A program made the position numbers and the translations under genes. 64,000 bases of DNA, taken from positions 133 to 64,132 of the forward strand of contig CAZMCQ010000004.1 of assembly GCA_964565195.1 (NCBI GenBank). The letters are read 5' to 3'. The notes below the pieces were generated by a model. That model saw only the letters and a list, made by a program, of their open reading frames with translations. It did no database searches and had not been told where the DNA came from. Below are positions 7,110-39,298 of the stretch, piece by piece. This DNA comes from an uncultured Candidatus Saccharibacteria bacterium. Its GTDB lineage: Bacteria; Patescibacteriota; Doudnabacteria; UBA920; 2-01-FULL-46-14. How positions within the stretch are numbered: the first letter of the stretch is position 1; the number at the start of each line of letters is the position of its first letter.

Positions 7110-7123
7110 ATTGTGGATAACTT

Positions 7124-7155: not shown

Positions 7156-7204
7156 AAAGGTGCAAAATTTATCAATTAAGAAATAAATATCAAGGAGCAA
7201 AGCA

Positions 7205-9797: not shown

Positions 9798-12064
9798 CCG
9801 CCAATATCAAAATAACCTTTTGTAGAACTCGCCGCAGAGGCGAGTTCTGCTATTGTCGCTCCCGCGGGCGGTGGTTCTGGCTCGGGCGGCGGGGGTAGGT
9901 AGGGATAAAAATTATTCGCGGCGAGCCACTTCTGGACACCCTGTTCCCAGTGCGGATCATTTGGTTTTTCGCTGTGGTAAACTGGCACAACGGAGATTTC
10001 TTCGCCAATTTGGATGGACTGGTACAAATCATCCGCGCCAGGAAGGTTGTCGGCGGTGAAAATTTCAATTTTGGTTTCTTGCGTCCGCTTGCCCGGCAAC
10101 TTGCCGGAAATTTTATCAACCGCGAGTTCGATTATCCCCTCGGGCCTCGCGAATTCTTCGGGCAGCGTGTCCGCGAGCGCGCGGCGCATAAATTCGTTCC
10201 AAATGGGCGCGGCCACCACTGACCCGTCGCTGCCTGCGCGCATGGGACGGTTATCATTGTTCCCCACCCACACGCCGGCGACGAGAGAGGGCGTATAGCC
10301 GATCGTCCAGGCATCGCGGTTGTTTTGCGTGGTGCCGGTCTTCGCGGCCACTGGCCGGTCGGGCAATACCAAATTTTTGCTAAGCGAGCCGAAGATAAAT
10401 TTGCGCGTCTCGCGGTCGGAGAGGATGCTGGTGATCTGATAGGCAATCGGCGGATCCAGAACCTGCTTCGGAAAGCGCGCCTCGCCATCATCCAAAATAT
10501 TACCGACGCGGTCAGTAACGCGCATAATGGCCTGCGGGGCGTGTCTCGCTCCATTTGTCGCAAACACGCCAAACGCCGAGGTGTGGTCAAGCAGGGTTAC
10601 CTCGGCCCCGCCGAGAACGATGGCCGGGCCGTATTTTTGGGAATCGGCGAGCGTGGTGATGCCCATGGCGCGGGCCGTGGCAACGGATTTATCAATGCCG
10701 GTGAGGAGCAAGGTTTTGACCGCCGGGATATTGAGCGAGCCGGCCAGCGCCTGCCGAACGGAAACCGGTCCATGCTCGCGGCCGTCATAATTGCGCGGGA
10801 TATAATCACGGCTGCCGTAGCGGCCGAAATTGGTGCGAACGTCCATCAGCATGGTCGCGGGGTTCATGCCATTCATAAAGGCCGTGGCATAAACATAGGG
10901 CTTAAAGGACGAGCCTGGCTGCCTCGGACGCGTGGCCACATTCACCTGGCCGTCGTGGGCCAAATCAAAATAATTGCGGCTGCCGACCATAGCGAGGATT
11001 TCCCCGGTTCGAGGATCAATGGCGACCAGCGCGGCATTGCCGGCGTGGTAACGTTTTTCGTTTTTCGGCCCCTCGCGCCGGATGATTTCTTCGCCAAGCT
11101 TTTGCAGCGAGAGATCCAGAGTCGTTACGACTTGCAAACCTTGCCGCAGCTGCTCTTCGCTGTAGGTTTTTTTCAGTTCTTCGATCACGTGCATTACAAA
11201 ATGCGGCGCTTGAATGGGCGCGACCGGTTTTTTAAATGCGACCGTTTGCTCGGCGGCCAGCAGCGCCTGCCCGGGCGAAAGATAGCCCTGTTCGGTCATA
11301 AGCTTGATGATTAAACGCGCCCGCGCGTCCAGCTCCTCGCGATGCGCGCCATAGGGCGAGTAATAGGTCGGCGCTTTGGGCAGGGCGGCAAGATAAGCTG
11401 CTTCCATCACCGTGAGCTCGCGCACGTGCTTGCCGAAAAAAGTCTGGCTGGCGGCCTCCACGCCGTAGGCGTTCGAACCATAGGGGATGCGGTTTAAATA
11501 CATATCCAGGATTTCCGTTTTGCTATAAAGGCGTTCCAGTTCCAGGCTTAAAACCGCTTCCTGAAATTTTCTCACGAAAGTCTTCCGGCGGCTTAGAATC
11601 GAAGCGCGCACCAGCTGCTGGGAAATCGTGCTCCCTCCCTCCCGCAGCGAGCGGGTGCGGAGATTGACCAGCGCCGCGCGGACGATGCTGGTGGGGTTCA
11701 CGCCGATGTGGGTATAAAAATTTTTATCTTCAATAGCAATCGTCGCATTTTGAACGCTCATCGGGATCTCGGCGAGCGGAATCGGGGTGCGCTTGACCTC
11801 GCCATATAGTTCGTAAAGCCGAGTGCCGCTTCTGTCATAGATTTTGGTGGACTCCGGAAAATCCATTGCGAGAAGTTCCACGCTCGGTTTGAAAAAAAAC
11901 ATCGCGAACAGCCCCGCGCTCGTAACGAGCAGGGTGACGGCAAGTTTGTTGGTGCGCTTTCCAGTCAAAAACCTCGAATTTTTTTCGGGGTTTTTGTTCT
12001 CTTCCTGTTCGGGTTCCCGGCCGGTTTGCGTGTTGGCGCCGCGATCGGTTTTGTCGTCCGCCAT
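9791..12064 (-). CDS. Class A penicillin-binding protein (bifunctional transglycosylase/transpeptidase, PBP1A-like) with a Pro-rich C-terminal tail.
   Basis: GT51 motifs IEDKNFYTHIGVNP and RIPYGSNAYGVEAASQTFFGK; transpeptidase motifs SSFKP, SLN, KTGT. Confidence 0.9.
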   Translation of the reverse strand: MADDKTDRGANTQTGREPEQEENKNPEKNSRFLTGKRTNKLAVTLLVTSAGLFAMFFFKPSVELLAMDFPESTKIYDRSGTRLYELYGEVKRTPIPLAEIPMSVQNATIAIEDKNFYTHIGVNPTSIVRAALVNLRTRSLREGGSTISQQLVRASILSRRKTFVRKFQEAVLSLELERLYSKTEILDMYLNRIPYGSNAYGVEAASQTFFGKHVRELTVMEAAYLAALPKAPTYYSPYGAHREELDARARLIIKLMTEQGYLSPGQALLAAEQTVAFKKPVAPIQAPHFVMHVIEELKKTYSEEQLRQGLQVVTTLDLSLQKLGEEIIRREGPKNEKRYHAGNAALVAIDPRTGEILAMVGSRNYFDLAHDGQVNVATRPRQPGSSFKPYVYATAFMNGMNPATMLMDVRTNFGRYGSRDYIPRNYDGREHGPVSVRQALAGSLNIPAVKTLLLTGIDKSVATARAMGITTLADSQKYGPAIVLGGAEVTLLDHTSAFGVFATNGARHAPQAIMRVTDRVGNILDDGEARFPKQVLDPPIAYQITSILSDRETRKFIFGSLSKNLVLPDRPVAAKTGTTQNNRDAWTIGYTPSLVAGVWVGNNDNRPMRAGSDGSVVAAPIWNEFMRRALADTLPEEFARPEGIIELAVDKISGKLPGKRTQETKIEIFTADNLPGADDLYQSIQIGEEISVVPVYHSEKPNDPHWEQGVQKWLAANNFYPYLPPPPEPEPPPAGATIAELASAASSTKGYFDIGGY

Positions 12065-12165
12065 TGTTTATCACCCCCTTCCAGTTTTACTATAGTGAAC
12101 CAGCAGTGAAAGACGGATTAAAAAAATAATCGCCTGGCCGTTCACAGAATTTTAATTGTTCCGGG

Positions 12166-12489
12166 TTGTATAATCAAACCATGCGATTCGTAATTTTTCT
12201 CGTAAATTTCGTAACGGGAATCGCCGAGGCGATCCTCGGTATCCGCCTCGTGTTGAAGCTGCTCGGCGCAAACCGCGCCGCACCCTTCGTGCAGTGGATT
12301 TACGATATGAGCCAGCCGCTGCTGCGGCCGTTTTTGGGGATTTTTCCCTCGCCGGTGCTCGACCGGATCTATGTTTTGGAGTTCACGACGCTGTTCGCGA
12401 TCCTGATTTACGCGCTGTTTGGCTATTTTCTCGACGAATTGCTGCGTTATTTGTCTTACCGGCTGAATCTCAAGCCGCCTAGGCCTTGA
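12166..12489 (+). CDS. YggT-family small membrane protein.
   Basis: IRLVLKLLGANRAAPFVQWIY...PLLRPF...RIYVLEF pattern typical of YggT; extended -10 TGTATAAT immediately upstream. Confidence 0.55.
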   Translation: MYNQTMRFVIFLVNFVTGIAEAILGIRLVLKLLGANRAAPFVQWIYDMSQPLLRPFLGIFPSPVLDRIYVLEFTTLFAILIYALFGYFLDELLRYLSYRLNLKPPRP

Positions 12490-13147
12490 TTTTATAACCC
12501 GTGCCGTGAATTGTATGGATCAGCGGTTTCAAGCCTGGGGTATCAATTTTTTGCCGCAGGCGCGTGATGTAAACGTCGATGACGTTGCTTTTGACGTAGT
12601 TGAAGCCCCAGATGTGTTCGTTGATCATGGTTCGCGTGCAGACGCGGCCTTCGTTGCGGATGAGATATTCCAGGATGCGGTATTCTTTGCTGGTAAGTTT
12701 GATCGGTCGGTCGCCGCGGGACACTTCGTGCGAGAGCGAGTCCAGCACGAGGTCGCTGACCTCGAGTTGGTCGGGCTTCAGGGTTTGCGAGCGGCGGGCC
12801 AGGGCATGGATGCGCGCGACGAGTTCTCCCATCTCAAACGGCTTCACCATGTAGTCGTCCGCCCCCAAGTTTAGGCCCTGGATTTTATCGTCAGACAATT
12901 TTTTTTGGGCCGTCAAGATCAGTACCGGCGTAGCCAGCTGCAAGGCTCGCATTTCCCGGACCACCGCAAAGCCGTCTTTCTTCGGCAGCATCACGTCGAG
13001 AATGACTAAATCATAGTCATTGACGCTGATTTTTTTTATGGCCTGTTCCCCGTCTGAAGCGAGCTCCACGGTAAATTGCTCCTTTTCGAGAGCATCTTTG
13101 ATAAATTCAGCCAGTTTGGCCTCATCTTCGGCCAGTAATATCACCAT
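12479..13147 (-). CDS. OmpR-family response regulator (receiver plus winged-helix DNA-binding domain); orphan, with no kinase adjacent.
   Basis: ILLAEDE...DLVILDVMLPKKDG...LILTAQ receiver motifs; C-terminal YVKSNVIDVYITRLRQKID winged helix. Confidence 0.9.
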   Translation of the reverse strand: MVILLAEDEAKLAEFIKDALEKEQFTVELASDGEQAIKKISVNDYDLVILDVMLPKKDGFAVVREMRALQLATPVLILTAQKKLSDDKIQGLNLGADDYMVKPFEMGELVARIHALARRSQTLKPDQLEVSDLVLDSLSHEVSRGDRPIKLTSKEYRILEYLIRNEGRVCTRTMINEHIWGFNYVKSNVIDVYITRLRQKIDTPGLKPLIHTIHGTGYKIKA

Positions 13148-21915: not shown

Positions 21916-23694
21916 ATGACAAAATATAAATTTATCGTTGCCCTTTCCCTTATCGCGCTTGTTTTTGATTTATTCGCGCCGCTCCCGGCAGCCGCGAGCT
22001 ATGATGCGGCCAAGGCCGTCCAGTATCTAAAATCGGGCAGTATTGATGAGTGGACGGTAATGGCGCTGGCTGCAGCAGGAAGTTTATCCGGAGTAAATAC
22101 CGACTTTTTGCAAAATGACGCCGGCGGAGCCGCAACAGCAACAGAGAAGCGGATTCTGGCAGCCGTCGCTGCCGGGCAAAACCCGCAAAATCATCTCACC
22201 GCGCTGACCGCACTTTACAATGGCACGGAGATAAATGCCGCCGCTGGCCTGCTCAACGATGATATCTGGGGACTCCTTGCCTTTGCGGCCGCGCGCGCCA
22301 ACTCAAGTGCGCAGGCGCAGCTGGCGAGTTTTATCAGGCAGAATCAGAACGTTAACGGAGGCTGGAGCTATGCCAAGGCGCCATCGGATTCGGACAGCAA
22401 TGACACGGCCGTGGCGATTATGGCGCTGCTGGCCGCCGGGGAAAGCCCGGATGCCGGGGCCATAACGCGCGGTTTTGGCTATCTGGCCAGCACCCTCACT
22501 GACACGGGTTTTGCCTTTGACGCTGATTCCGGCTTTGGGCCGGATTCGGCTTCAACTTCCTGGGCCATTTCCGCTTATCTGGCCGCGGCGAGAACCGTGC
22601 CGGTAAGCGCGCGGGTTTATCTTGAGAATTTGCAGAAAACCGATGGCTCGTTTCCCTGGCAGCAAGGCGGCTCGGGCAATCCGCAGATGACGGCCCATGC
22701 GGTTATCGCGCTTTCCGGAAAATTTTTCCCGGTGCGCGCCGGGGGAGTGAATTCCAGTTTTGAAGTATCAATCATCGGCCCGAGCGCGACCATTTTCAGC
22801 GGTCATATCACGCTGCCCCCTGGGGCTACCGCGCTTGCCGTTTTGGCCGAAAGTGCAAAGACTGGCAATTTTTCGTATGTGGTCAAAGATACTTCCCTGG
22901 GGTTATTTGTTGAATCCATCGGTGGCATCGGCCCCAGCGGGGACAAGGGATGGATGTATGCTGTGAATGGTGTAAAACCGTCAGTTGGCGCATCGCAATA
23001 TGTGTTGCAAAACGGGGATAAATTAGTTTGGTTTTACGGCGCGCCAGAGATCGCGGTGCCAATTGGTCCACCTTCAGGCAATGGACAAAATTCTGCTGTA
23101 GTCAACCTCTCGCTTCAAGTTTCTGTTCCCGCGGATCCGGAGCCGACAATTATGCTCGCGGCTTCGCGGACCAGCATCGGGCTCGGCGACACTGTTCAGC
23201 TTTCCTGGAGTGCGCAAAACGCGAGCGCGGTTGTAACTTCCACTCCTGGCAATTGGGCGGGCGCTGCCCTGTCCGACACAGTCACTGGCGGACCCCCGCA
23301 GACTACAATTTATTCCATTATGGTGTCCGGCCCGGGAGGCACCAAACAAGCGACAGTGCAGATCAACGTGGACACAACGCCGCAGATTGTGTTCGGGGTC
23401 AATCCTAACAATCTGCATCTGGGCGATTTATCGCCGTCGCATACCACCGTGCAGGGTTCGCTTGTGCTCGCCAATGCAGGCCGAAACAATTTGGCTGTCA
23501 CCGCCACCCTTCAGAACGCGGATGGTCTCTACCAGCAGGCGTTGTTTTTGAACGGTTTTTTGTGGTCCGCGTTTCGCGAGAATTTAGACACGAATTTTTC
23601 CAAAAACGTGAACGTCAGCGTTGTTTTGCCGGCCGGATACAGAAATAACGGCATCAAGACTGGCACGCTGATTTTTTGGGCAGTCCTTCGATGA
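21916..23694 (+). CDS. Secreted surface protein with prenyltransferase/squalene-oxidase-like repeats and a DUF4430 (transcobalamin-like) domain.
   Basis: Signal peptide; repeats NVNGGWSY...DTAVAIMALLAAG; DUF4430-like FSYVVKD...GWMYAVNGVKPSVGASQYVLQNGDKLVWFY. Confidence 0.6.
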   Translation: MTKYKFIVALSLIALVFDLFAPLPAAASYDAAKAVQYLKSGSIDEWTVMALAAAGSLSGVNTDFLQNDAGGAATATEKRILAAVAAGQNPQNHLTALTALYNGTEINAAAGLLNDDIWGLLAFAAARANSSAQAQLASFIRQNQNVNGGWSYAKAPSDSDSNDTAVAIMALLAAGESPDAGAITRGFGYLASTLTDTGFAFDADSGFGPDSASTSWAISAYLAAARTVPVSARVYLENLQKTDGSFPWQQGGSGNPQMTAHAVIALSGKFFPVRAGGVNSSFEVSIIGPSATIFSGHITLPPGATALAVLAESAKTGNFSYVVKDTSLGLFVESIGGIGPSGDKGWMYAVNGVKPSVGASQYVLQNGDKLVWFYGAPEIAVPIGPPSGNGQNSAVVNLSLQVSVPADPEPTIMLAASRTSIGLGDTVQLSWSAQNASAVVTSTPGNWAGAALSDTVTGGPPQTTIYSIMVSGPGGTKQATVQINVDTTPQIVFGVNPNNLHLGDLSPSHTTVQGSLVLANAGRNNLAVTATLQNADGLYQQALFLNGFLWSAFRENLDTNFSKNVNVSVVLPAGYRNNGIKTGTLIFWAVLR

Positions 23695-24086
23695 TCGGCG
23701 TTTCTCCTGACCATTTGGAGCTTGATCTGGCGCAAAGCGGCGCGAGCAGCCAGAATATTTTTTTGAAGAATCTGGATACAAAGCCGGTTGAGATTTCTAT
23801 CGAAGCAGAGAGATATGCCCATCACCTTGAAATCGAGGCGGCCGCATTGATATTGCCGAGTGCAGGGGAGAGAGCCGTCAAAATCACCGCGAGAGCAGGA
23901 AAAAATTTTTCTACAAATTTGGAGGTGGTCGCTCATGAAAATTCCGAAATTGCCGCCGGAATAAAAATCCCCTTAACAGTGACCGGCAATAAATTTATAA
24001 CGCAGTATCAATATGGCTTTATCCTTCTCGGCGCTTTTTTGATTACATTTTTGGCGTACGCGATTAACAAAAAACGAAAAAAATAA
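23691..24086 (+). CDS. Small tail-anchored protein (C-terminal TM plus KKRKK); probable start is an ATGA overlap with the upstream gene.
   Basis: C-terminal FILLGAFLITFLAYAINKKRKK. Confidence 0.5.
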   Translation: MIGVSPDHLELDLAQSGASSQNIFLKNLDTKPVEISIEAERYAHHLEIEAAALILPSAGERAVKITARAGKNFSTNLEVVAHENSEIAAGIKIPLTVTGNKFITQYQYGFILLGAFLITFLAYAINKKRKK

Positions 24087-24109
24087 ACTAGACAAACATA
24101 AAGGAGGTA

Positions 24110-24646
24110 GTGATGCAACGCAGAGAATGGCTGTTTTCCGCGCTGGGGGTTTTGGCAACGGGATTACCCATTGCCGCCGAGGTCATCGGCCGACGTGTCA
24201 ATCCTCGGCCGGATATTGAGACGGTTCGCCTCCCCGCCGGGGATTATTGGCTCGACGTCGGCGTTGACGGCGATCCACTCCGCGGCCTCGTGACTTATTT
24301 TTACGCGACGCTCGTACCTGCTGCTCCGGACGCTTTTTATGGGACTCGTCCCTTGGAACGATTGCGGGCATCCGGGATGATCGAACCAAACGAGCCGCGA
24401 CAAGGATTTTTCCCGACCCGTGCGCGGCCGCCCGATTCTGACAAAACTGAACCAGATGCGTTTTTCAGGATCGTGACGGTGAGAGTTGGGAAAGATATTT
24501 ACCGGATTGCCAGCGAGGCATTTTGGTTTCTGGTGAACGGTAACCTCGTGCTTGGCAGCGAGGTGAGCGCCGCGAGCTTTGACATTAAGCCCGCCGACAC
24601 GGTGAGCGTGGTCATCGCCCCCGGCGCAACTGGTCAGCTGCTTTGA
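24110..24646 (+). CDS. Hypothetical secreted protein (possible Tat-like RR signal).
   Basis: AAAGGAGG RBS 6-8 nt upstream; N-terminus MMQRREWLFSALGVLATGLPIAA. Confidence 0.55.
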   Translation: MMQRREWLFSALGVLATGLPIAAEVIGRRVNPRPDIETVRLPAGDYWLDVGVDGDPLRGLVTYFYATLVPAAPDAFYGTRPLERLRASGMIEPNEPRQGFFPTRARPPDSDKTEPDAFFRIVTVRVGKDIYRIASEAFWFLVNGNLVLGSEVSAASFDIKPADTVSVVIAPGATGQLL

Positions 24647-24655
24647 AAGCAAGAG

Positions 24656-24697
24656 AGCCGCGGGGTTGTAGCTCCGCGGCTTACATTTTTATTTTAT
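24656..24697 (+). terminator. Strong rho-independent terminator.
   Basis: Perfect stem AGCCGCGG-N10-CCGCGGCT followed by TTACATTTTTATTTTATT. Confidence 0.8.
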
Positions 24698-24712
24698 TAA
24701 AAAATGTTCAGT

Positions 24713-24741
24713 TTGCAAAATTGTGCGAAAAGTGCTATAAT
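24713..24741 (+). promoter_or_regulatory. Near-consensus sigma70 promoter of the giant-protein operon.
   Basis: TTGCAA, 17-nt spacer, TATAAT (duplicated TATAAT), within a 160-bp AT-rich gap. Confidence 0.6.
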
Positions 24742-24863
24742 TATAATAGTCAAAACAAAGACCAATAACCAAAAATAACAATGCATTTTCTGCCGATTTT
24801 GGCATTTGACAATTCTGCTTTGGTTAAATTTGGATTTATCCAAGGCAGAGTTTTTTAAATTAT

Positions 24864-27839
24864 ATGGCGAGACCCGAAGCGCACATTCCCGAAATAAACC
24901 CGCAGCGCGATGCAGATATGCGCCTGATGCCGGCGCGTTCTTTGATGCGTCAGCTTGAGAAACTCGAAAATGAATTCTCTGCAGAGAACACGGACGAGAC
25001 AAAACGGCGTTTGGGAATTATTGAAAAACAAATTATTGAAAAGGCGGGTCCGGAGAATGACCAGCCGAAATCTGACGAATTAACTGATCTATGGTACGAG
25101 CTTTGGGTAAAAGTAAATGGTCTAAAAAATGTTATCGGAACTTACAACAAGGAAACGCCTGCCCCAACTCCAACCGCACAAGTCGTAGATATTGAGCTTG
25201 GCCGCAAAAAGCCGCCGGCAGCCAAAGAAGGGAAAGGTGATGCAAGCGAGGTTGGAGGAGGAACAGGAGCCGCGACAGCTGGTGGCGGCGAGGGCGGCGA
25301 GCCGCCGGATGATGGCGAAAAGAAAAAACTGACCAAAGCGGAAAGGAAAGGGAGCAAAGGAAAGAAGGGGAAAGTCGATGCTGCGGAAGAAGAGCTGGCG
25401 AGCCGCGCGGAAGAGATACGATTTAAACAGGAGGCGGAGGCGGCTGCAAAATTAGCGGCTGAAAAATTGGAGACTGACGAGCAGCCGGCCAAGAAAGAGA
25501 AACACTATGAAGCGATTGGCAACATTGCGCGGCAGAATGCGGTATCGGGTGAGGAATGGCTTCGTGACAAACCGAAACCGGGTTTTGCGGAAGAGGATGC
25601 GCAAAGAATAGCCGAGGCGTTCCAGCAGACAATAGCGGCGCAAACACCTCCCGTGCCGGCGGAAGCAACGCCGGGAGTTTTTGCGGGCAAGGAAGAGCCG
25701 CCCGCCCCGCCGCCTGAAGGCGCGCCAGAGGCAGAACCTGCCCCTGTCCCAACCGCAGGCAGCGGCAAGATTGAGAGGGCGATCAGCGGCCGAGAAAAAC
25801 GAAGCGCGCGCCAGACAGTTGTTGAACAAAATGAGGCGCGCTTTAGAGAGAGAGATGAACGGTTCCGCCAAGCGAAGGCGATGGTCGTCAAGGCCAAAAC
25901 CGGCGATTTTGGCAAAGAGGAAGTCGCAGAATTTGATGAGGTTGCCGGGCCGCTTTTCGAGCACTACCGCGGCCTTCTAAATGTTGCCAAAAGACAAGTT
26001 AAAGCCCATGCCAAACGGAAGCTGGCTGAACTAGACGGAATGCGCAAACTTGTTGAGGCTGGCGAGTTAAAAGGGAAAGCCGAGCAGAACCCCGAGGAGC
26101 GGTTAAGAAACTCGAGGGATTACAAATTGCTGGAAAAGCAGTTTTTGCGCGGCATGAATGTGAGAGAGATGAAATTTAAATTTAATCGCGAAGATGAAAA
26201 GAGGATTGTTGAACTTTTCGAGCGGGATGTGAAGGCAGGACGCGATCCGCTGCAGCGGATCGCTGGAGATATACTTTACAAGGTGCTTGGCGATTACGAT
26301 TTCAATGAACTAAATGCGAAGGACAAAGAGGAATCCGAAAAAAAGTTTCTGGAGGTTGTGCGCCAAGTTTGGAATAATTTCGTCTACGAAAGAAAGGTCA
26401 ACCCGCGGACTGGCCAGTTTGGCATTGGCGAAGGCTCAATGGATACTGACGTCAAGGTGTCGCTTTGGCTTCTCAAAAAAGCGGGTATGGTCGGAGCAGA
26501 GGATGCGCAGTCAGTAAAGGCCGGTGAGGTCGTACCCGGTGCAACCCACGTCGATACCGGGCCGCAAGGCGTTTCCGGAGTCTTTCTCGACCGGCTCGAC
26601 GGAGAAATGATTGCCGGTTTTACCAATCACCCCGAAGGCCGTGATTTCCGAACCTCCAGCGCCAAGATTTTGTTTGAGTTCCTACGCCAGGCCGGTTTTA
26701 TTGAGACGAACGACAGTTCACAGGATGGTTTCAAGCAAAGGCGCGCAATGGAGATGATGGTCCAGTACACAATTGATGAAGATAACGCATCTTTTCCGGT
26801 AAGTAAAGAGGGGAGCATCGCTGATTTTAAAAAAAGCGCTGAAACATTGCGCGGCCTTGGGCGATATCTGTCTGCCGATCAAATGCATGCAGTTTTTATA
26901 GCGTATGATGAGGGCGGACCGTTTGGCGAAACTTATCGGAAAATTTTACAGCGCAAATTCACTCGTGAAGAATTGAGCAATCTAGGATTGCTTGACGAGT
27001 ACAAGCTTGCAGAGTTTCCAAATCGTGATTTTGATTTTGACGCTTACGCCAAGGAATACAGACAAAACAAAATTACGATTCCGGCTTTCGCCCAGTACGC
27101 CATCGAGCAGGCGGGCAGGCGTTTTGACAAATCACCCAAGAGGCGGTTTTCCGAAGGGTGGACGCTTCGGACGCGGTTTGGAAATTATGTCGTGGATATC
27201 GTGCAAGGCCGCGGAGACAAGACACTGGCCGGTTATAATGCCGTACAGGCCTATGGGTTCGATGGTTATATTTCTTATGATGTCCGCAACAACAGCTTTC
27301 TAATCAATACCTTCAATCCCAAAGTTGACTTAAGCCGTGATCCGGGGATTCACGAGCTTCAGAAAAAAACCGGTGCAGTGATTGTTCGCGGCAATATAAT
27401 GATTCGCCCGGGAGCGAAGGACAAACCGTTTAATACCACTCTCAAAGAAATTCTACAGATTCTGACCGGGAAAGAGGAAATTCAAGCCGGGGAGTTGATC
27501 ACCCGCGCTTTGGAACTCGAGAGTAAAGGCGAACTGAAACCCGTCGAGCGATCGGTAGAGAAGTGGAAGAAGAAAAAGAAGAGACAAGAAGCCGCGCCTT
27601 CCCCGAAAGCCAAGGAATTCTCACCCCCTGAAAGGAGAGGGGGCGGGAGTGAAGCGGTAGCAGAAAAAACGGAAAAAGAGAAACAGCGCGAGCAAGTTAC
27701 TAGAGATTGGGAAGAAAAAACAAGGGGTTGGCTCATTGGAGAAAAGAAAACTGAAGAACAAATTCAAAAGTATTTTGACATATTTAGGGATAGCGAAGTT
27801 GAGAAAATAATGAAAATGATCGAGGAAGAAAATGCCTGA
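24864..27839 (+). CDS. Giant (991 aa) charged, K/E/A-rich hypothetical protein with a low-complexity N-terminal third and no signal peptide or TM helices.
   Basis: Long uninterrupted ORF. Its stop overlaps the next start (ATGCCTGA). I recognise no catalytic motif. Confidence 0.7.
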   Translation: MARPEAHIPEINPQRDADMRLMPARSLMRQLEKLENEFSAENTDETKRRLGIIEKQIIEKAGPENDQPKSDELTDLWYELWVKVNGLKNVIGTYNKETPAPTPTAQVVDIELGRKKPPAAKEGKGDASEVGGGTGAATAGGGEGGEPPDDGEKKKLTKAERKGSKGKKGKVDAAEEELASRAEEIRFKQEAEAAAKLAAEKLETDEQPAKKEKHYEAIGNIARQNAVSGEEWLRDKPKPGFAEEDAQRIAEAFQQTIAAQTPPVPAEATPGVFAGKEEPPAPPPEGAPEAEPAPVPTAGSGKIERAISGREKRSARQTVVEQNEARFRERDERFRQAKAMVVKAKTGDFGKEEVAEFDEVAGPLFEHYRGLLNVAKRQVKAHAKRKLAELDGMRKLVEAGELKGKAEQNPEERLRNSRDYKLLEKQFLRGMNVREMKFKFNREDEKRIVELFERDVKAGRDPLQRIAGDILYKVLGDYDFNELNAKDKEESEKKFLEVVRQVWNNFVYERKVNPRTGQFGIGEGSMDTDVKVSLWLLKKAGMVGAEDAQSVKAGEVVPGATHVDTGPQGVSGVFLDRLDGEMIAGFTNHPEGRDFRTSSAKILFEFLRQAGFIETNDSSQDGFKQRRAMEMMVQYTIDEDNASFPVSKEGSIADFKKSAETLRGLGRYLSADQMHAVFIAYDEGGPFGETYRKILQRKFTREELSNLGLLDEYKLAEFPNRDFDFDAYAKEYRQNKITIPAFAQYAIEQAGRRFDKSPKRRFSEGWTLRTRFGNYVVDIVQGRGDKTLAGYNAVQAYGFDGYISYDVRNNSFLINTFNPKVDLSRDPGIHELQKKTGAVIVRGNIMIRPGAKDKPFNTTLKEILQILTGKEEIQAGELITRALELESKGELKPVERSVEKWKKKKKRQEAAPSPKAKEFSPPERRGGGSEAVAEKTEKEKQREQVTRDWEEKTRGWLIGEKKTEEQIQKYFDIFRDSEVEKIMKMIEEENA
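27620..27653 (+). repeat. GC-rich palindromic element in frame in giant protein A (encodes SPPERRGGGSE).
   Basis: tcaccccctgaaaggagagggggcgggagtgaag. Confidence 0.5.
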
Positions 27840-30800
27840 TGGAGAAGGCCACTCACCAGAAGAAGTGCAGCGAATTATCCGCGAAGAGATCGCGGCTAAA
27901 TTTCGCAAACCAAAAGTAGATAAACAAGAACAGCCAGCGGCGGAAAAAATTGAAATTGCCGCGCCGCTGGTGGAATCCGAACTTCCGGCTCCAGAGCCGG
28001 AATTGCCCGCGCCAACCCTGCCGGAGAAAAAAGAGGAACTCCCGCCAGCTGCAAAATTCAAAACGGGTGACCGAGTTCGTCGGTATGTTGTTAGAGATAA
28101 AGACGAAAAGCCGGAGGTAGATCCGACCCCGCGGATCATTCGTGAAGTCAAGCTACGCCCAGGGATGCAAACTGCCTATGTTTTAAGTGACGGCAGTGAA
28201 ACCGTGGAGAGCTGGTTGGAAAAAGCGCCGGACGATGCGCTTGCCGCCAGCCAAGAAATTAAACCTCCTTCCAGCACAGAACCAAAAGTGGAAGCAGAAT
28301 CACAGCCCGAAAGAACTTTAGAACAAACCGTGGCCGAAGTGGCCAAGGATTTCTTCGCGGAGAAGGCCCGGCAGGCCAATTTGTCGGAAGACGAGCAGAG
28401 GCATCTGCGCGCGATGTATGACAAAATAGTTCGTGAAAAAGGTTTTATTGAAAAAGTTTCCGATGCGACGATAGGGAAAATAAAGCAACGGAAATATCTG
28501 GGGTGGGCGCCTGAATTTATCGCATCCGGTGTGAGCGGGTATATTCTTCGCAGCACGGTTCGAAGCGGTCTCGAAGCAGCAATATCACTAGGCACGGTCG
28601 GAACAGGCGCGGGCGTTGGCGCACTCGTCGGCGGCGCGATGGGTTCGTTTTCCGAATACCGGAAAGCAAGAAAAGAAGCGTACGGGGTTGCCAGTTGGGC
28701 TAAGGAGCTTGAAGGCAAGGACAACGTCGTTCTAGCCGGACAATATGAAGCCTTAAAACAAGCGATCGCTGACGCCAAAGTTAAGGGCAATGAAAATGAA
28801 GCTTGGGAACTCGTGATGAAGCTGCGCGATATTGGAACGAAACTGGCGCAGGAGGGGGGGCCTGAACAAATCTTTTCCCAAAGACTGGATGATGACAAAA
28901 CCACAGCCCTTACTGGCGCGCGCGGTGAGATCTATAAAAAAATGTTGGATACACGGAGCAAGCACATCAGAAGTAAAGCAGGCATAGGGCTTCTCAAAGG
29001 AGCGGCTATTGGAGCAGTCGGTGGAACCCTTGGCGCGCTTATCAGCGATTATGTCGCGGGGTGGCGGCATCTCGAGGATTTAAAGACGGCGAAAGCACCG
29101 GTCAATCAGGAGATAATCGATTATGTTCAAGACAGAGCAAGGGAGGCCAAAGAAGCAGCGATTGAGAGATCGCTCGACCATTCCATGGATCAGCTAGCGA
29201 GCCATTCCTTTACCCAGCATGTTCAGAGCGGAGAAGGACTTACGCATGTTGCCCGTGGCTTTATTCATGATTATCTGACACAGGATAACCGTATCAGACT
29301 TTCCCGCGAACAGCTTTTGTACGCGGAGGATTATTTGCAAAAGCATATGACCGACCATCTCCAGCCCGGCCAGGAATATGTACTGAAAGGTCAGCAAATT
29401 TTGGATGCCATCAGTGCCGCGCGAACTTTAACCGAAGATAAGATCGAAAATCTTAAGCAAAATTGGGTATCGAAAGTGGCGGAGAAAGTTTGGGATAGGA
29501 CGCAGGACTATAGCCAGACTTTCGACAGTACTAACCAATTTACGCAAGGATTTGTCAGGGAAGCCCAGGCGCAGGGCGAAGCGGCTGCGCAAAAATATCT
29601 CGATGAAGCCGCGGGAATGTCGCTTGAACAAATGGCAGAAGTTGCCAAAGCAGCCGGCGCGGCAGCGGCTACTGCCGAGCGCAATAATCTAATCATGAGA
29701 TACGTTGCGGGAGCCGTAGGTATAACCGCAGTCGGATTTGGAATAAAAAGAGCTTTTGATCGATTCCGCGCGCCAAAACAGGAAACAAAAACTTCGATGT
29801 TGGGACTGGATGACAAAAAGGGGCCGGAGCCAACCGAACCGCCACGGCCAGGGCCACAGCCTGCGCCCGACCAAGAACTTAGAGATATAATGGGATTGGA
29901 GCCAGAGGAACCACAACCGGTACCCCAAACGCCAAAGTCTGAGAACAAATCGCTGTTAGGATTTCTGAAGCGAAAGAAAGAGGGGCCGCAACTAGACAGG
30001 ACTGCACAGGAAGCAGCGCAAAAGGAAGCAGAAAAATTGGAAGAGGCAAAACAGGCGGCAGATCCGATTATTGCTTGGTACCAGAGCCAAGGATTAGAAG
30101 CAAAGCCAGGGGATGTGTATTACAGAGCAATTATTCCAGAAGACATCGGCAAAGCGAGTGCCAGCACCTTGAGTTTTTCGAATTACTCGGATTACAGGGC
30201 TCATATGGAAAGCCTTTCTCCGTATATAAGGGGTCGTGCGCTCCGTTATGATCGAGTTGGGCCTTTGAGTTCAGAAGAGTTTTGGGAGCAAAAGAATAAA
30301 TTATCTAAGTCAGCATTGACTGAATGGAGAACATCTTATAGCAAAATCCTTTTGGGTTTATATGAAGATAGATTTACGGGAAAGCCGGAATCGGTAATGA
30401 AAACGGAGGAGGAAATGAAGGCGATACGAAAAGAATTGGAAGATGAGTATGGTCTTTATTTTGCAGACGACTGGTCGGTAGGATATGACGCTAATTATTA
30501 TGCGGCGGAAAAAATAAAAGAAGTTTTGCCGAAGATTCCAAAAGAAAGACTAAACCGTGTACGTTTTAAGCCCGCATTAAAGAATGAAATTAGCAAAGAA
30601 GGGATAATTCTTTTCAATCCTGATGCAGGCCCTTCTGAACTCCAGAAGTATATTGGAGATATCGCGCTCGAAGCCGCAAATGTAATTAACACGAAAACTG
30701 AAGATGCCCGAGAGAAAATTTATGAGTTGGAGCGTACATATAATATAGAAGTTTACAGTACCGTCTATGGGGATAAATTTTTGAGAGCAGCGGAAGTTTT

Positions 30801-30987
30801 TAAAGAAGCATTAGCTGGTCAGACAAATTTGCCTTCAGATTTAGGATTTGCCATTTTGAATAGTCCAGAGGATTATCATTACAAAAATCGTATAAACCTC
30901 CTATGGAATATGACGTCGGAGGAAATGCGAACGGAAATAGCAAGATTTTTAGAAAATAAAAACAAAGAAGGGAATCAAAATGGCTGA
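27832..30987 (+). CDS. Giant (1051 aa) hypothetical protein: charged N-terminus, three glycine-zipper hydrophobic segments, a Pro-rich linker, and a C-terminal module of about 290 aa that is compositionally distinct (AT-rich).
   Basis: Segments AISLGTVGTGAGVGALVGGAMGSF, AGIGLLKGAAIGAVGGTLGALISDYVAGW, YVAGAVGITAVGFGI; linker KGPEPTEPPRPGPQPAPDQ...PEEPQPVPQTPK. GC drops from about 55% to about 37% after about 30060. Confidence 0.7.
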   Translation: MPDGEGHSPEEVQRIIREEIAAKFRKPKVDKQEQPAAEKIEIAAPLVESELPAPEPELPAPTLPEKKEELPPAAKFKTGDRVRRYVVRDKDEKPEVDPTPRIIREVKLRPGMQTAYVLSDGSETVESWLEKAPDDALAASQEIKPPSSTEPKVEAESQPERTLEQTVAEVAKDFFAEKARQANLSEDEQRHLRAMYDKIVREKGFIEKVSDATIGKIKQRKYLGWAPEFIASGVSGYILRSTVRSGLEAAISLGTVGTGAGVGALVGGAMGSFSEYRKARKEAYGVASWAKELEGKDNVVLAGQYEALKQAIADAKVKGNENEAWELVMKLRDIGTKLAQEGGPEQIFSQRLDDDKTTALTGARGEIYKKMLDTRSKHIRSKAGIGLLKGAAIGAVGGTLGALISDYVAGWRHLEDLKTAKAPVNQEIIDYVQDRAREAKEAAIERSLDHSMDQLASHSFTQHVQSGEGLTHVARGFIHDYLTQDNRIRLSREQLLYAEDYLQKHMTDHLQPGQEYVLKGQQILDAISAARTLTEDKIENLKQNWVSKVAEKVWDRTQDYSQTFDSTNQFTQGFVREAQAQGEAAAQKYLDEAAGMSLEQMAEVAKAAGAAAATAERNNLIMRYVAGAVGITAVGFGIKRAFDRFRAPKQETKTSMLGLDDKKGPEPTEPPRPGPQPAPDQELRDIMGLEPEEPQPVPQTPKSENKSLLGFLKRKKEGPQLDRTAQEAAQKEAEKLEEAKQAADPIIAWYQSQGLEAKPGDVYYRAIIPEDIGKASASTLSFSNYSDYRAHMESLSPYIRGRALRYDRVGPLSSEEFWEQKNKLSKSALTEWRTSYSKILLGLYEDRFTGKPESVMKTEEEMKAIRKELEDEYGLYFADDWSVGYDANYYAAEKIKEVLPKIPKERLNRVRFKPALKNEISKEGIILFNPDAGPSELQKYIGDIALEAANVINTKTEDAREKIYELERTYNIEVYSTVYGDKFLRAAEVFKEALAGQTNLPSDLGFAILNSPEDYHYKNRINLLWNMTSEEMRTEIARFLENKNKEGNQNG

Positions 30988-31285
30988 TCCAAACGCGCTA
31001 ACGTTGAAACTGCTTGCGGAGATGGGGGTGATGAACCCGACGCAGAAAATGGCGGATAATATAAAAGATCACTTTGAGAATGTGATCCTGGAAGTGTTTC
31101 TGCGCCGCGTGCCGGAAAATAAATTGCCGGAGATTCGCGCGAAAATGGAAGCCGACGATCCGGAGCTGCATGATTATTTTGCCGCGCTCGCGGCAGAGAC
31201 CCCGGGGCTTGCCGAAGAGCTGGAGGCCGCGGTCACCCGCGAGTATGCGGTGATGAAAGAAGCTCTGCAGACCGCGCCAAAATAG
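30980..31285 (+). CDS. Small (101 aa) acidic alpha-helical protein, translationally coupled (ATGGCTGA) to the giant protein; immunity/chaperone-like by position.
   Basis: ORF plus coupling; the composition returns to GC-rich. Confidence 0.55.
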   Translation: MADPNALTLKLLAEMGVMNPTQKMADNIKDHFENVILEVFLRRVPENKLPEIRAKMEADDPELHDYFAALAAETPGLAEELEAAVTREYAVMKEALQTAPK

Positions 31286-31294
31286 AAAGGCGAT

Positions 31295-33943
31295 TTACTT
31301 CTTCGCGACTGCCGCGATGCGCAAAGGGCGAAAGCTGATTTCGCCTTTTTTGGCGGAAACGTCAATGATGTCGCCGCGCTCGGCCTCGCCTTTGATCATG
31401 AGGAGCGCGAGCCGGTCGAGAATTTCCTTTTGGATGAGGCGTTTTAGCGGCCGCGCGCCGAAGATCGGGTCATAGCCCTTGTCCGAAAGCAGTTTTTTCG
31501 CGGGTGCACCAACCCGTAGCGTGAGGCCGTGCTCGAGGAGGCGGTCGGCGATCTGCTCGAGCTGCAGCTCCACGATTTTTTCGATGTGTTCTTTTTTCAG
31601 CGGATGGAAGATGATGATCTCGTCAATGCGGTTTAAGAATTCCGGCCGGAAGTGTTTGTGCAAAATATCCAAAACCCGCTCGCGCATCTGGGCCTCCGAG
31701 GCCTCGGCCTCCCCGCGGTTTTCCGAAAAACCCAGGACCTGGGTGCGGATCATCTCCGAACCGAGGTTCGAGGTCATGATGATGATCGTGTTTTTGAAAT
31801 TCACGGTCCGGCCTTTGGCGTCCGTGAGCTGCCCGTCATCCAGAATCTGCAGCAGGATGTTGAAGATCTCGGGGTGCGCCTTCTCGATCTCGTCGAAGAG
31901 GATGATGCTGTAGGGGCGCCGCCGCACAATTTCCGTAAGCTGGCCGCCCTCCTCGTAGCCAACATAGCCGGGCGGCGAGCCGATGAATTTCGCGACCGAA
32001 TGTTTTTCGCTGTATTCGGACATATCAATGCGCACGAGCGCTTTTTCGTCATTGAAGAGAAATTCGGCGAGCGCCTTGGCGGTCTCGGTTTTGCCGACGC
32101 CGGTCGGCCCCATGAAGATGAACGACCCGATCGGCCGTTTTTCCTCGGCAATGCCGGCGCGGGAGCGGCGGATGGCGTTGGAGATCGAGACAATGGCTTC
32201 ACCCTGGCCCACAATCCGTTTTTTGAGCTCCTTTTCCATGTTGGTGAGCTTGATGCTCTCGCTCTCCAGCATCTTCATGACCGGGATGCCGGTCCAGCGC
32301 GAGACGTTCTGGGCGATATCCTCTTCGGTTATTTTTTCGCGCAGGACCTTGGTTTTGCTCTGCAGTTTGATGAGCTCGCGCTCTTTGACCGTGATCTCGT
32401 TTTGCAATTTGGGCAGCAGGCCGTAGCGGATCTCGGCGACGCGGTTCAGGTCGCCCTCGCGTTCGGCGCGCTCGGCCTGCATCTTGAGATCGTCAATCCG
32501 GCTTTTGGCCTCGCGGATTTTCGCGATCACTTCTTTTTCCGCTTCCCAGTGCAGGCGCAGGGTGCGCGCCTGCTCCTGGGTTTCGGCGAGTTCCTTTTCC
32601 ACTTTTTTGCGGTTTTCCCCGCTCGACTCGGACTCCTCGTTTTTGAGCGCCTGTTTTTCGATCTCCAGCTTGCGGATTTTGCCGGTCAAGGTCTCCAGCT
32701 CCTCGGGCATGCTGTCAATCTGGAGGCGCAGATTGGACGCCGCCTCGTCAATGAGGTCAATGGCCTTATCCGGCAGATACCGGTCCGTGATGTAGCGGTG
32801 CGAAAGTTCGGCCGCGGCCACGAGCGCCTCGTCCGTGATCTTCACGCCGTGGTGCACCTCGTATTTTTCCTTGATGCCGCGCAGGATGGAAATCGTATCT
32901 TCCACGGATGGCTCGAAAATCGTGACCGGCTGGAAGCGCCGCTCCAAAGCCGCGTCTTTTTCAATGTATTTCTGGTATTCCTTGAGCGTGGTGGCGCCGA
33001 TGGCGTGCAGCTGCCCCCGCGCGAGCATGGGTTTGAGCATATTGGAGGCATCCAGGCCCCCCTCGGCCGCGCCGGCGCCCACGACCGTGTGCAGTTCATC
33101 AATAAAGAGAATGATCTTGCCGCTAGAGCGTTCGATCTCCCGCAGCACGGATTTCAGGCGCTGCTCAAATTCCCCGCGGAATTTGGCGCCGGCCAGCAGC
33201 GCGCCGAGGTCGAGGGCTAAGAGCATTTTATTTTTGAGACTTTCCGGCACGTCGCCGTCCGCGATGCGCTGCGCCAGGCCCTCCGCGACCGCCGTTTTGC
33301 CCACGCCCGGCTCGCCGATCAAAACCGGATTATTTTTCGTCCGGCGGGAAAGCACCTGCATCACGCGGCGGATTTCCGCGTCGCGGCCGATCACCGGATC
33401 GAGTTTGTTTTTGCGCGCGAGGTCCGTGAGATTCAGGGTGTATTTTTCCAGCGACTGATAGCTCTGCTCGGGTTCCTGATTGACCACGCGCTCTGACCCG
33501 CGGATCTCTTTCAGACTTTCCAGAACGTCGTCCGTTGAGAGGCCGAACTGCTCGAGGAGGTTTTTGGTCTGCCCGCCGCGCTCCAGAATGGCCAGAAACA
33601 AATGTTCGGTCGAGACATATTCGTCTTTGAGCTTCACGGCCTCTTTCATTGACTGCGTGAGCACTTCGTTCAGATTGCGCGTCACGTAAATCTGTCCCAG
33701 GCCCGAGGGAAAGGCCGAAATCTGCGGCAGGACGCGCAGGATTTTCTGGATTTGGTTTTCCAGGAGCCGCGTGTCCACTTTCATTTTTTCCAGGAGCGAG
33801 CCAATCACGCCGCCTTCCTGCTGGATGAGCGCCAGAAGCAGGTGAATGGTGTCCACCTGCTGGTGTTCAAAATCCGAGGCAATGGTCTGCGAAGAGGCGA
33901 TCGCTTCCTGGGCTTTTTGCGTGAATTTATCTAAGGGGATCAT
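31295..33943 (-). CDS. clpB: ATP-dependent chaperone ClpB.
   Basis: Two AAA+ modules ([15 protein letters not shown]; [15 protein letters not shown]), coiled-coil M-domain, N-domain; 882 aa. Confidence 0.95.
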
Positions 33944-34086: not shown

Positions 34087-34248
34087 TTACCTTGTTTTGA
34101 TGAATTTGCCGTGAAACCGGCGGTGGATCTCCTTCAGGCGGCGATTGGTGACGTGCGTATAAACCTGCGTTGTGGTGATGGAGGCGTGGCCGAGAATTTC
34201 CTGAACAGACCGCAAATCCGCGCCCGCGGCGAGCAAATCCGTGGCCAT
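34087..34248 (-). pseudogene. Relic C-terminal fragment (53 codons) of a tyrosine recombinase/integrase (XerC/D-phage integrase family).
   Basis: Minus-strand translation [45 protein letters not shown] matches box II (LLxxGxDLRxVQxLLGHxxxxTTxxYTH with the catalytic Tyr). The frame is closed by TAA immediately upstream of the ATG, so the N-terminal roughly 250 aa are absent. Confidence 0.7.
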
Positions 34249-38404: not shown

Positions 38405-39298
38405 ATGAAGAAACTTCTCCTGATAATTTGTCTTAGTTTTATCCTCATTTCTCCATTTTTCGCTCTCGCGGCCGAATCAGGGCTCGGCGACACTGGTTTT
38501 GAAACAGTTTGTAAGAAGGGGGGCGAACTCGCCTTAGGTGCCTGCATTGCCAACATCTATAAACTTTCCCTGGGTTTAGGCGCCGTGGTGGCGCTCTTCA
38601 TGACCATTCTGGCCGGCTACCGGTATATGAATGCGGCCGGCAACGCCGAGCAGGTGGAGAGCGCCAAGGAATCCTTTACCTACGCGATCACCGGCCTCAT
38701 CATCCTCTTCGTGGCCTATGCCCTGCTCTACACGATCAACCCAGACCTGGTGAAATTCCGCAAGGTCGGGGACATCGGCAAGCTGCCGGCGATAGTGTTT
38801 CAGGCGCCGGCTCCGCCTATCACGGGTCCAGCTATTGATTTGGCCAAACAGATCCAGGGTCTAGCCGCACGGATCACTTTGGCCATGGTGCATGCCTCCG
38901 GCAATTCCGACAACGCGACCGCGAGAAAGAATATTGACGATACGGCAGAGGGCCGGGAGGCTTTGCACAGCTGCTATGGTACAGCACCTTGCAAAAGTGT
39001 GGCTTTGGATGAAACCATGCTCGGCGCGATGATCGAACTCGCGAAAACTTATTCATTTTCTGTAAGCGAGATCGCCGGCGGCGCACACAGCGCCAATTCC
39101 GCTCATTATGCCGGTCGCGCTTTTGATGTGAATTATATAAATGGAACTCGTGTTAACGCGAGCCACCCTTCGCAGCAGGCGTTCAGAGATAAATGCCGGA
39201 CCTTGGGCGCGGTGCAATATCTGGGCCCGGGCGCTGCCGGACATTCGACCCATATCCACTGCGCCTGGGCAGCCGGCGGGACGGATATAGGAGATTAA
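38405..39298 (+). CDS. Fusion protein: TrbC/VirB2-like pilin N-terminal region plus peptidase M15 (VanY/D-Ala-D-Ala carboxypeptidase-like) domain.
   Basis: Signal peptide plus two TM helices (LGLGAVVALFMTILAGYRYM...ITGLIILFVAYALLYTINP); M15 motifs SAHYAGRAFDVNY and HSTHIHCAW. Confidence 0.55.
   Translation: MKKLLLIICLSFILISPFFALAAESGLGDTGFETVCKKGGELALGACIANIYKLSLGLGAVVALFMTILAGYRYMNAAGNAEQVESAKESFTYAITGLIILFVAYALLYTINPDLVKFRKVGDIGKLPAIVFQAPAPPITGPAIDLAKQIQGLAARITLAMVHASGNSDNATARKNIDDTAEGREALHSCYGTAPCKSVALDETMLGAMIELAKTYSFSVSEIAGGAHSANSAHYAGRAFDVNYINGTRVNASHPSQQAFRDKCRTLGAVQYLGPGAAGHSTHIHCAWAAGGTDIGD

Follow-up and report, generated by a model that had tools for sequence, protein, structure and literature searches.

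A conserved three-gene operon of Candidatus Doudnabacteria combines an undescribed membrane protein family, its small partner and a predicted divergent DHH/DHHA1-fold protein

The operon described here occupies positions 24,864 to 31,285 of a 64-kb stretch of DNA (contig CAZMCQ010000004.1; hereafter the window) from the metagenome-assembled genome (MAG) of an uncultured Candidatus Doudnabacteria, a lineage of the Candidate Phyla Radiation (CPR, or Patescibacteria). It comprises three open reading frames (ORFs), A (24864-27839, 991 amino acids [aa]), B (27832-30987, 1051 aa) and C (30980-31285, 101 aa), and is a self-contained, translationally coupled unit; these genes, and the other features of the window that are given below with coordinates, are on the + strand unless marked (-). 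Homology searches and neighbourhood comparisons indicate that the operon represents a conserved, chromosomally inherited module, so far found only in CPR/Patescibacteria, with B and C as its invariant core. The distribution was sampled rather than surveyed, and all four named genomes are Patescibacteria MAGs. Judged from sequence comparison, the families of B and C and the GEG domain within B are undescribed, while the conserved core of A appears to be a divergent variant of the known DHH/DHHA1 superfamily. We give a probability of about 0.4 to the reading that the operon encodes a membrane complex that keeps a DHH-fold, phosphoester-binding or -hydrolysing domain on its cytoplasmic face, with a GEG domain above it facing outward. 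As a whole, it looks like conserved chromosomal cell-envelope equipment and not like a toxin-immunity locus.

B is the family-defining component. Searched exhaustively with HMMER, 1.84 billion cluster representatives yield 229 relatives of B at E<=1e-3 and 19 at E<=1e-30; the membrane core is present in about 66 proteins and the GEG domain in 151. Word-indexed homology searches with full-length A, full-length B or the part of A free of low-complexity sequence returned the query itself and nothing else among the matches listed. Pattern scans recovered four loci from a genome collection, with a narrow back-translated pattern, and five from metagenomes, with the GEG alignment; the metagenome scan with the alignment of the A core found nothing. 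Neither A, B nor C has a significant match in Pfam, NCBIfam, PHROGs, PADLOC or PDB sequence searches, and members of the B family, including relatives of up to 2260 aa, contain no Pfam domain and no informative extra domain. An earlier reading of this DNA, made from the letters alone (hereafter the sequence-only reading), had been able to name no family for the locus; for B and C, which fall into no described family, these searches uphold that statement. By homology, B thus belongs to an undescribed protein family.

The most constant feature of the module is the pairing of B with C (30980-31285), a small protein whose net charge of -8 bears out its earlier description as acidic. Gene neighbourhoods, the comparison of which the sequence-only reading had suggested, were assembled from exact look-ups of homologues and from pattern scans; three loci from one organism (L009, L014 and L018; L numbers denote loci and P numbers proteins) were collapsed, leaving 10 independent lineages with a B core. 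A C-family gene, with 34-50% identity to the window's C, adjoins B in all 10. It lies 3' of B in seven lineages and 5' of it, with overlapping stop and start, in the other three (L011, L017 and L019). It accompanies four types of B C-terminus: the full YSDYR module with repeats, part of that module, a DHH-fold domain, and an unrelated long extension. Small proteins that carry the GEG domain only (L010, L016) have no C neighbour. The presence of C in 10 of 10 lineages, whatever the C-terminus of B, argues for a subunit that binds the conserved core and against an immunity gene. From its gene neighbourhoods, C is taken to be an obligate partner of the B core.

C is similar in its small size to DUF5663 (Pfam PF18908). 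That family gives weak matches in two of nine C-family members (best E 0.004, below the curated threshold), and the precomputed annotation of the C-like gene in L011 lists PF18908 as 'weak'. The window's C has no match to DUF5663 at E<=1, and the literature library searched holds no mention of the family. DUF5663 differs in being a family without known function, so the link would explain nothing.

The chromosomal setting is conserved as well. The same place in the chromosome, with a convergent clpB followed by rpsO, pnp and tgt, is kept in three Doudnabacteria-type genomes, and relatives carry the operon genes in one copy per locus. In the window, the convergent clpB stops 9 bp from the end of C (31285-31295). 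No relative was found among the 2.9 million viral contigs of IMG/VR by pattern scan and tblastn, and tblastn gave no match in 50,697 phage genomes or among 72,556 plasmids. The clpB/rpsO/pnp/tgt synteny in three genomes and the lack of viral, phage and plasmid matches together point to vertical inheritance. Within the 64-kb window, neither A, B, C nor any of their domains has a paralogue.

B very probably is a membrane protein with Gly-zipper-like helices. Following a lineage-specific N-terminal region in the alignment (residues 1-225), a Gly/Ala-rich hydrophobic hairpin is formed by two segments, H1a and H1b (residues 226-273; 28507-28650), and a conserved helical stretch (274-381) then leads to the Gly-zipper-like helix H2 (382-411; 28975-29064). 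The segment that homologue alignments show to hold the GEG domain (412-618; 29065-29685) is closed by the hydrophobic helix H3 (619-638; 29686-29745), and a Pro-rich linker separates H3 from the C-terminal module (736-1051; 30037-30984). Three glycine-zipper segments had been picked out by the sequence-only reading; they lie at residues 250-273, 383-411 and 624-638, and their hydrophobicity stands, as these are the sole stretches of B in which the 19-residue Kyte-Doolittle mean exceeds 1.4. Across 20 homologues, with 15 residues counted on each side, the mean net charge is +2.6 before and +2.1 after the hairpin, +2.2 before and -0.9 after H2, and -0.1 before and +2.2 after H3. Under the positive-inside rule, these flanks assign the GEG segment to the exterior, and the N-terminal region, the two ends of the hairpin and the C-terminal module would all be cytoplasmic, with H2 running from inside to outside and H3 from outside to inside. 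We infer a topology of a hairpin and two membrane helices, with the GEG domain facing outward.

The GEG domain, whose core spans B 455-575 (about 29194-29556), is recognizable by the motifs GEGxTHxAR..IHDYL, QLxYAEDYL and NWVxKI..W...DY....N.F. Little beyond this domain is present in 86 small proteins of about 110-300 aa. A single, strongly hydrophobic N-terminal transmembrane helix, followed by a linker that is often acidic, is found in 76 of these 86 GEG-only proteins, and Lys and Arg are commoner on the N-terminal than on the C-terminal side of this anchor in 57 of the 76. The bias suggests an N-in/C-out anchor, which gives independent support for an outward-facing GEG domain. Neither Pfam nor PDB sequence searches match the domain, and GEG is probably an undescribed extracytoplasmic domain. 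A guess that it might be LysM-like was dropped, LysM not being among the 25 families most frequently matched at E<=1 by 85 GEG proteins.

As delimited by local iterative searches and alignment, the C-terminal module of B begins with an N-sub-domain (AADP...YSDYRAHMESLSP; consensus AADP...YSDYRxYLExLSP) and continues with two repeats of about 95 aa. The repeats, at 30394-30666 and 30679-30966, are homologous to one another (hhalign probability 96.5%, E 9e-10). The module is unrelated to the A core, the GEG domain and the B core (hhalign probabilities <4%) and has no PDB sequence match. It also occurs in proteins that lack the B core, and in some B relatives it is exchanged for other domains. 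The sequence-only reading had proposed looking for variability of this C-terminus; the region is modular and exchanged between lineages, but C does not co-vary with it.

Two side observations concern B itself. A small, probably beta-rich segment at B 75-130 (window ~28054-28221), KFKTGDRVRRYVV...YVLSDGSETVESWLEKA, aligns with a similar insert in one relative alone (P0005); the rest of the family is without it, and a local iterative search found no other relative. In another Doudnabacteria locus (L007, 5322-8299 of JBGQGB010000001.1), B consists of two overlapping ORFs of 430 and 562 aa (P0051 and P0007), both recorded as separate proteins, with the hairpin region and H2 on opposite sides of the break. 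This split may be tolerated, with B made as two polypeptides, or may reflect a frameshift.

Gene A (24864-27839) encodes a charged, Pro/Gly-rich and poorly conserved N-terminal portion of about 480 aa, followed by a core with a DHH/DHHA1 fold, a charged linker and a small, conserved C-terminal helical tail (930-991). Conservation is limited to the C-terminal 60% of the protein, which shares 34% identity (E 1e-88) with the protein encoded 5' of B in L003; A-like proteins are also encoded 5' of B in L007 and L012. The first hint of the fold is a succession of motifs in the core, DxD ... hDxG ... [DE][NH]H + TSSAKIxYExL ... DEDNxxFP, whose order suggested a DHH domain. A PHROG 'DHH phosphoesterase' profile falls on A 596-622 at E 0.25, below significance. 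Pfam DHH and DHHA1 have no match at E<=1 in A, in the A-like protein of L003 or in two fused homologues (P0014 and P0046), and PDB profile searches with alignments of the A core came back empty.

Structure prediction carries the assignment further. AlphaFold run on A 474-891 as a single sequence reaches a predicted local distance difference test (pLDDT) score of 41, and the model used for fold comparison was built from a 6-sequence alignment. In that model, the A core (A 485-885; 26316-27518) is a two-lobed DHH/DHHA1 fold, with a DHH-like lobe at about 26376-26993, a DHHA1-like lobe at about 27078-27518, and an inter-lobe insertion (A ~712-736) modelled with low confidence. Its structural matches include RecJ, RecJ2, GAN, NrnA and Cdc45. 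Foldseek, as an independent ranking, returns PggH (probability 1.00, E 6e-4), RecJ-Cdc45, GAN and Cdc45, together with family II pyrophosphatase and the DHHA1-like C-terminal domain of alanyl-tRNA synthetase. The identification of the A core as a divergent DHH/DHHA1 fold is thus well supported by the predicted model. The statement of the sequence-only reading that A and B show no catalytic motifs holds by eye, but fold comparison, by the Foldseek search of an AlphaFold model that it had itself proposed, places a divergent DHH/DHHA1 domain in A. The motif residues lie at 26442-26786 and comprise D527-x-D529 (motif I), D564 (motif II), T587-N588-H589 at the DHH position, and D640-N641 (motif IV).

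The A core is linked to B by both gene order and gene fusion. It is a separate gene immediately 5' of B in four lineages, and in three others (P0014, P0046 and the metagenome locus L019) it is fused to the B core after H3. In P0014 and P0046, a segment resembling the A core replaces the C-terminal module of B, as detected by BLAST (E 1e-16 and 2.5e-15); the link between A core and B has hidden Markov model (HMM) evidence as well. Such fusions are classical evidence of a functional link, here between A and B. Fusion after H3 also places the A core on the same side of the membrane as the C-terminus of B, that is, in the cytoplasm.

Below, we compare the A core with NrnA-type enzymes. In these enzymes, two metals are held by an upstream His, the two motif I Asp residues, the motif II Asp, the first His of D-H-H and the motif IV Asp. 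D-H-H also provides a substrate contact, through its second His, and a GGGH motif comes from the DHHA1 lobe; alanine substitutions of these metal and substrate residues nearly abolish activity (PMC11229311). D527, D529, D564 and D640 of A are invariant in all seven A-core family members, which share 24-48% identity, their motif assignment following order and spacing and not residue-level superposition. That these acidic residues are strictly conserved speaks for a working metal site. For motif III, the fused forms of L011 and L019 have D-H-H, P0046 has D-H-R, and all four separate-gene forms have x-N-H. The upstream His is missing from the seven sequences, and GGGH is found in none of them; the DHHA1-like lobe has a conserved V-R-G-[NTA] instead, with a provisional alignment to GGGH. 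The conserved replacement of His by Asn, like the missing GGGH, speaks for altered chemistry or for binding only. Since alanine changes of the His ligands nearly inactivate a canonical member, their loss means that the window's A may bind a ligand and not hydrolyse it, or may do neither. For the A core in general, altered chemistry or binding only may be the case.

In the membrane-complex reading, B would be a membrane scaffold with its N-terminal region and Gly-rich hairpin on the cytoplasmic side. H2 would take the chain out and H3 would return it, with the GEG domain displayed outward between them and the modular C-terminal domain hanging in the cytoplasm. C would be a small, acidic cytoplasmic subunit and the constant companion of the B core, and A would be soluble, with its DHH/DHHA1-fold core acting at the cytoplasmic face of B. 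Most likely, a surface event acting through GEG would be coupled to the DHH-fold domain, which would bind or hydrolyse a phosphoester ligand, the candidate ligands being a nucleotide second messenger, 3'-phosphoadenosine 5'-phosphate (pAp), and a short oligonucleotide or single-stranded DNA. A physical complex of A, B and C is the presumed arrangement, and the direction of the coupling is likewise presumed. A bolder version, which we think improbable, is that the operon encodes an undescribed, CPR-specific trans-envelope machine in which GEG, the module that many small anchored surface proteins also display, senses or binds something extracellular, for example a host surface or wall component. 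With the aid of C, it would be coupled across the membrane to a DHH-type phosphoesterase that breaks down a nucleotide signal or processes oligonucleotides obtained by scavenging. If true, the episymbiotic lifestyle would include a device for host contact or nutrient acquisition that cultured model bacteria do not have.

Several points weigh against the membrane-complex reading. The A core is undetected in four of 11 B-core lineages or proteins (L006, L009/L014/L018, L013 and L017), where the genes 5' of B are unrelated to A and to one another; its absence there argues that A is an accessory and not a core component. The window's A has T587-N588-H589 where D-H-H is expected and lacks the upstream His. 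The DHH assignment comes from a model built on a six-sequence alignment, and Pfam and PDB profile searches do not reach it. For B, charge bias is the sole basis of the topology, and the hydrophobicity of its membrane segments is weak (mean Kyte-Doolittle 0.7-1.0). Contact among A, B and C is likewise a deduction from gene order, fusion and conservation.

A serious rival, possible though doubtful in our judgement, holds that A, B and C form an envelope or cytoskeleton-like scaffold serving shape, division or attachment, in which the DHH fold of A is catalytically dead and serves just to bind protein or nucleic acid, like that of Cdc45 in the eukaryotic replisome. Cdc45 proteins are indeed among the structural matches of the A core, and the T-N-H motif of the window's A, the x-N-H of all four separate-gene forms and the lack of GGGH at the provisional position all fit a dead site. 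The make-up of the proteins also suits this rival, as about half of A and much of B are charged, low-complexity, probably helical or disordered and fast-evolving, and the genes are found in one copy per locus in a housekeeping neighbourhood. However, a dead site would not be expected to keep four acidic metal-site residues invariant across seven members with 24-48% identity, two of the three fused forms retain a canonical D-H-H, and no coiled-coil or cytoskeletal family was detected. An alternative centred on nucleic acids starts from the background that CPR bacteria are generally presumed unable to make nucleotides, which we assume for this organism too. B and C would then aid the import of DNA or RNA at the envelope, and the RecJ/NrnA-like domain of A would degrade or pass on the imported single strands or oligonucleotides, thereby providing the cell with nucleotides. 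RecJ, RecJ2, GAN and NrnA among the structural matches favour this role, as do a PrgI gene after the fused gene in L011 and a type IV secretion system (T4SS) pilin gene 7 kb 3' of the operon in the window; genes for DNA uptake and pili are reported to be widespread or enriched among CPR bacteria (PMC6744442). Uptake genes show a loose association that is not conserved from locus to locus, however, and no DNA-binding domain (OB fold, HhH) was detected. The helices of B are too few and too weakly hydrophobic to make a channel alone, and the metal site of the window's A is non-canonical, so we consider this role unlikely.

The sequence-only reading had favoured an effector or toxin, B and possibly A, accompanied by an immunity or chaperone protein, C, and on the present evidence this is very unlikely. 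Its appeal is understandable, as Gly-zipper segments occur in some pore-forming toxins, the C-terminal region of the B family is modular and exchanged between lineages, and a small acidic gene is tightly coupled to B, a layout of conserved body, exchangeable C-terminal module and small coupled gene that recalls polymorphic toxin loci. An immunity gene should co-vary with the toxin domain, and C does not: one C family accompanies four B C-terminal architectures, lies 5' of B in three lineages, and tracks the conserved body of B, which leaves the toxin/immunity reading unsupported. Searches of A, B and about 20 homologues in Pfam, NCBIfam and PADLOC found no toxin, trafficking (such as LXG, Rhs, PAAR or WXG) or secretion-signal domain, and PADLOC gave no defence-system match. 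Whereas a toxin would be expected to diversify its warhead, the conserved parts here are the membrane core and GEG, the setting is syntenic, chromosomal and non-mobile, and the family is absent from the viral, phage and plasmid collections searched. According to the sequence-only reading, the toxin idea would be undermined by confident remote homology of A and B to ordinary structural proteins kept in single copy, together with a lack of toxicity and of interaction with the small protein; half of this is seen, in that A has confident fold-level homology to an ordinary enzyme superfamily and there is one copy per locus. A membrane or envelope role, mentioned in the same place as membrane remodelling, may apply. 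Finally, a prophage or mobile-element remnant with a tape-measure-like B is the most improbable of the alternatives. Gly-rich hydrophobic segments can occur in tape-measure proteins, and a 53-aa integrase fragment lies past clpB in the window, with a full integrase at the same place in L003. But the syntenic clpB separates the integrase from the operon, PHROGs gives no significant match (the best for B, at E 0.041, being a family of unknown function), and searches of the phage, plasmid and IMG/VR collections found no relative. No phage structural genes are nearby, and the GC content is in the window's range.

Among known systems, the membrane complex envisaged here comes closest in broad logic to the GdpP-type cyclic di-AMP phosphodiesterases, in that a DHH/DHHA1 domain is tethered to the membrane; the operon would be a functional analogue and not a member of that group. 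GdpP is one polypeptide with transmembrane helices, a PAS domain, a degenerate GGDEF domain and DHH/DHHA1 domains. Domain searches found neither PAS nor GGDEF in A, B or the fused homologues. The membrane part of the operon is unrelated to that of GdpP, the DHH-fold protein is a separate polypeptide in the window, motif III is T-N-H with no GGGH at the provisional position, and the operon has a conserved partner, C. The stand-alone DHH/DHHA1 proteins (NrnA/Pde2, PggH, DhhP, TM1595 and the archaeal PAP phosphatase) share just 8-16% identity with the A core. Unlike them, A has no Pfam DHH/DHHA1 match and lacks two His ligands and GGGH, and it carries about 480 extra N-terminal residues, about 100 extra C-terminal residues and the inter-lobe insertion. 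Cdc45, archaeal GAN and RecJ-Cdc45 are alike in having a DHH/DHHA1 fold with degenerate motifs and in serving as a subunit of a complex, but they are members of the replisome; nothing ties the operon to replication, and the acidic residues of the A core are strictly conserved. The literature library searched contains no description of the system as a whole.

The layout of the operon agrees with the sequence-only reading in ORF lengths, gene overlaps, terminator and promoter, as ORF calls, folding against shuffled sequences and a promoter scan all bear out. A and B share an 8-nucleotide (nt) start/stop overlap of the ATGnnTGA type, ATGCCTGA at 27832-27839, and B and C share another, ATGGCTGA at 30980-30987, preceded by purine-rich Shine-Dalgarno sequences of the GAGGA type ahead of B and the GAAGGGA type ahead of C. 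The same overlapping arrangement of genes recurs in L003 and L012. An intrinsic terminator (24655-24697) marks the end of the upstream cluster and the 5' boundary of the operon. Its hairpin (24655-24682) has a 12-bp stem with eight G-C pairs, followed by a T-run, and folds at -23.8 kcal/mol against -11.3 +/- 2.6 for shuffled sequences (z -4.8; none of 200 shuffles as good). Next comes a sigma-70-type promoter-like site, TTGCAA-17-TATAAT with a TG extension (24713-24741), identified by its match to the consensus. With a score of 10/12, it is the joint best in the 7.8 kb from 24000 to 31800, tied with an overlapping TTTGCA-18-TATAAT. The scan reported no terminator-like site between C and clpB, and transcripts from the two sides may overlap. 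Residue counts confirm the K/E/A-rich composition that had been described for A (E 12.1%, K 9.9%, A 9.6%) and B (A 11.0%, E 10.8%, K 8.3%). The purine skew of the operon follows from its coding for K/E-rich protein.

An NCBI assembly of the same organism (GCA_016198105.1, contig JACQJL010000002.1, which starts just 126 nt ahead of gene A) splits B into 832 and 196 aa. Relative to the window, it has four A->T changes in a stretch of 33 bp (30296-30328), of which the one at 30328 creates a TGA stop in B. The intact B of 1051 aa is present, with identical sequence, in the window and in an independent Logan assembly (SRR12113383). The split probably reflects an error of assembly or consensus, or else a minor strain variant.

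The neighbours of the operon are as the sequence-only reading had described them, with clpB converging from the 3' side and a cluster of secreted or surface-like proteins upstream (21.9-24.6 kb). The genes of this cluster encode signal- or anchor-like hydrophobic ends. A 592-aa protein (21916-23694) has such an N-terminus, a DUF4430 domain (E 2e-14) and weak matches to squalene-hopene-cyclase/prenyltransferase-like repeats (E 1e-5). Next come a 136-aa protein whose C-terminus has a hydrophobic anchor and a basic tail, and then a 178-aa protein with an N-terminal hydrophobic segment. The cluster is not kept beside the operon in L003 or L007. On the far side of clpB, a 53-aa Phage_integrase fragment lies between clpB and rpsO (~34087-34248, (-)), and a full-length integrase of 318 aa occupies the same position past clpB in L003 (16925-17881, (-)). 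The position just past clpB looks like a recurrent integration spot.

Genes related to type IV secretion are found at 38405-39298 in the window, encoding a T4SS_pilin (PF18895) protein 7 kb 3' of the operon, and at 6847-7257 (+) of L011, where a PrgI-family (PF12666) gene directly follows the fused B and A-core gene. The link of type IV secretion to the operon is loose. In one lineage, ftsH directly follows the B-C pair (L009 8690-10528; L014 3791-5629; L018 6897-8750). Both clpB and ftsH are AAA+ protein-quality-control neighbours of B-C, which may be coincidence. Farther from the operon, a leucyl-tRNA synthetase of 1021 aa (48691-51756) appears to contain an alpha/beta-hydrolase segment (Ser_hydrolase PF06821, E 1e-7) at residues ~244-402, within the catalytic domain and ahead of the editing domain, an unusual insertion for this enzyme. 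L013, on a CPR metagenome contig, carries a GyrA/ParC-type (DNA_topoisoIV) gene (9132-12992, +) with an intein and a LAGLIDADG endonuclease domain, according to precomputed Pfam annotation.

A large part of bacterial diversity belongs to the CPR, whose distinguishing proteins are mostly membrane proteins without known function (PMC6744442). The analysis turns three 'hypothetical proteins' into a defined module, with a membrane protein family, a candidate extracytoplasmic GEG domain, a partner of about 100 aa and a fusion link to a divergent DHH/DHHA1 fold, and it clears away a toxin annotation that is tempting but lacks support. Should the DHH-fold domain be active, the module would represent a new mode of tethering this class of enzyme to the membrane; if it is inactive, the A core would be a candidate for a bacterial DHH fold recruited as a structural subunit.

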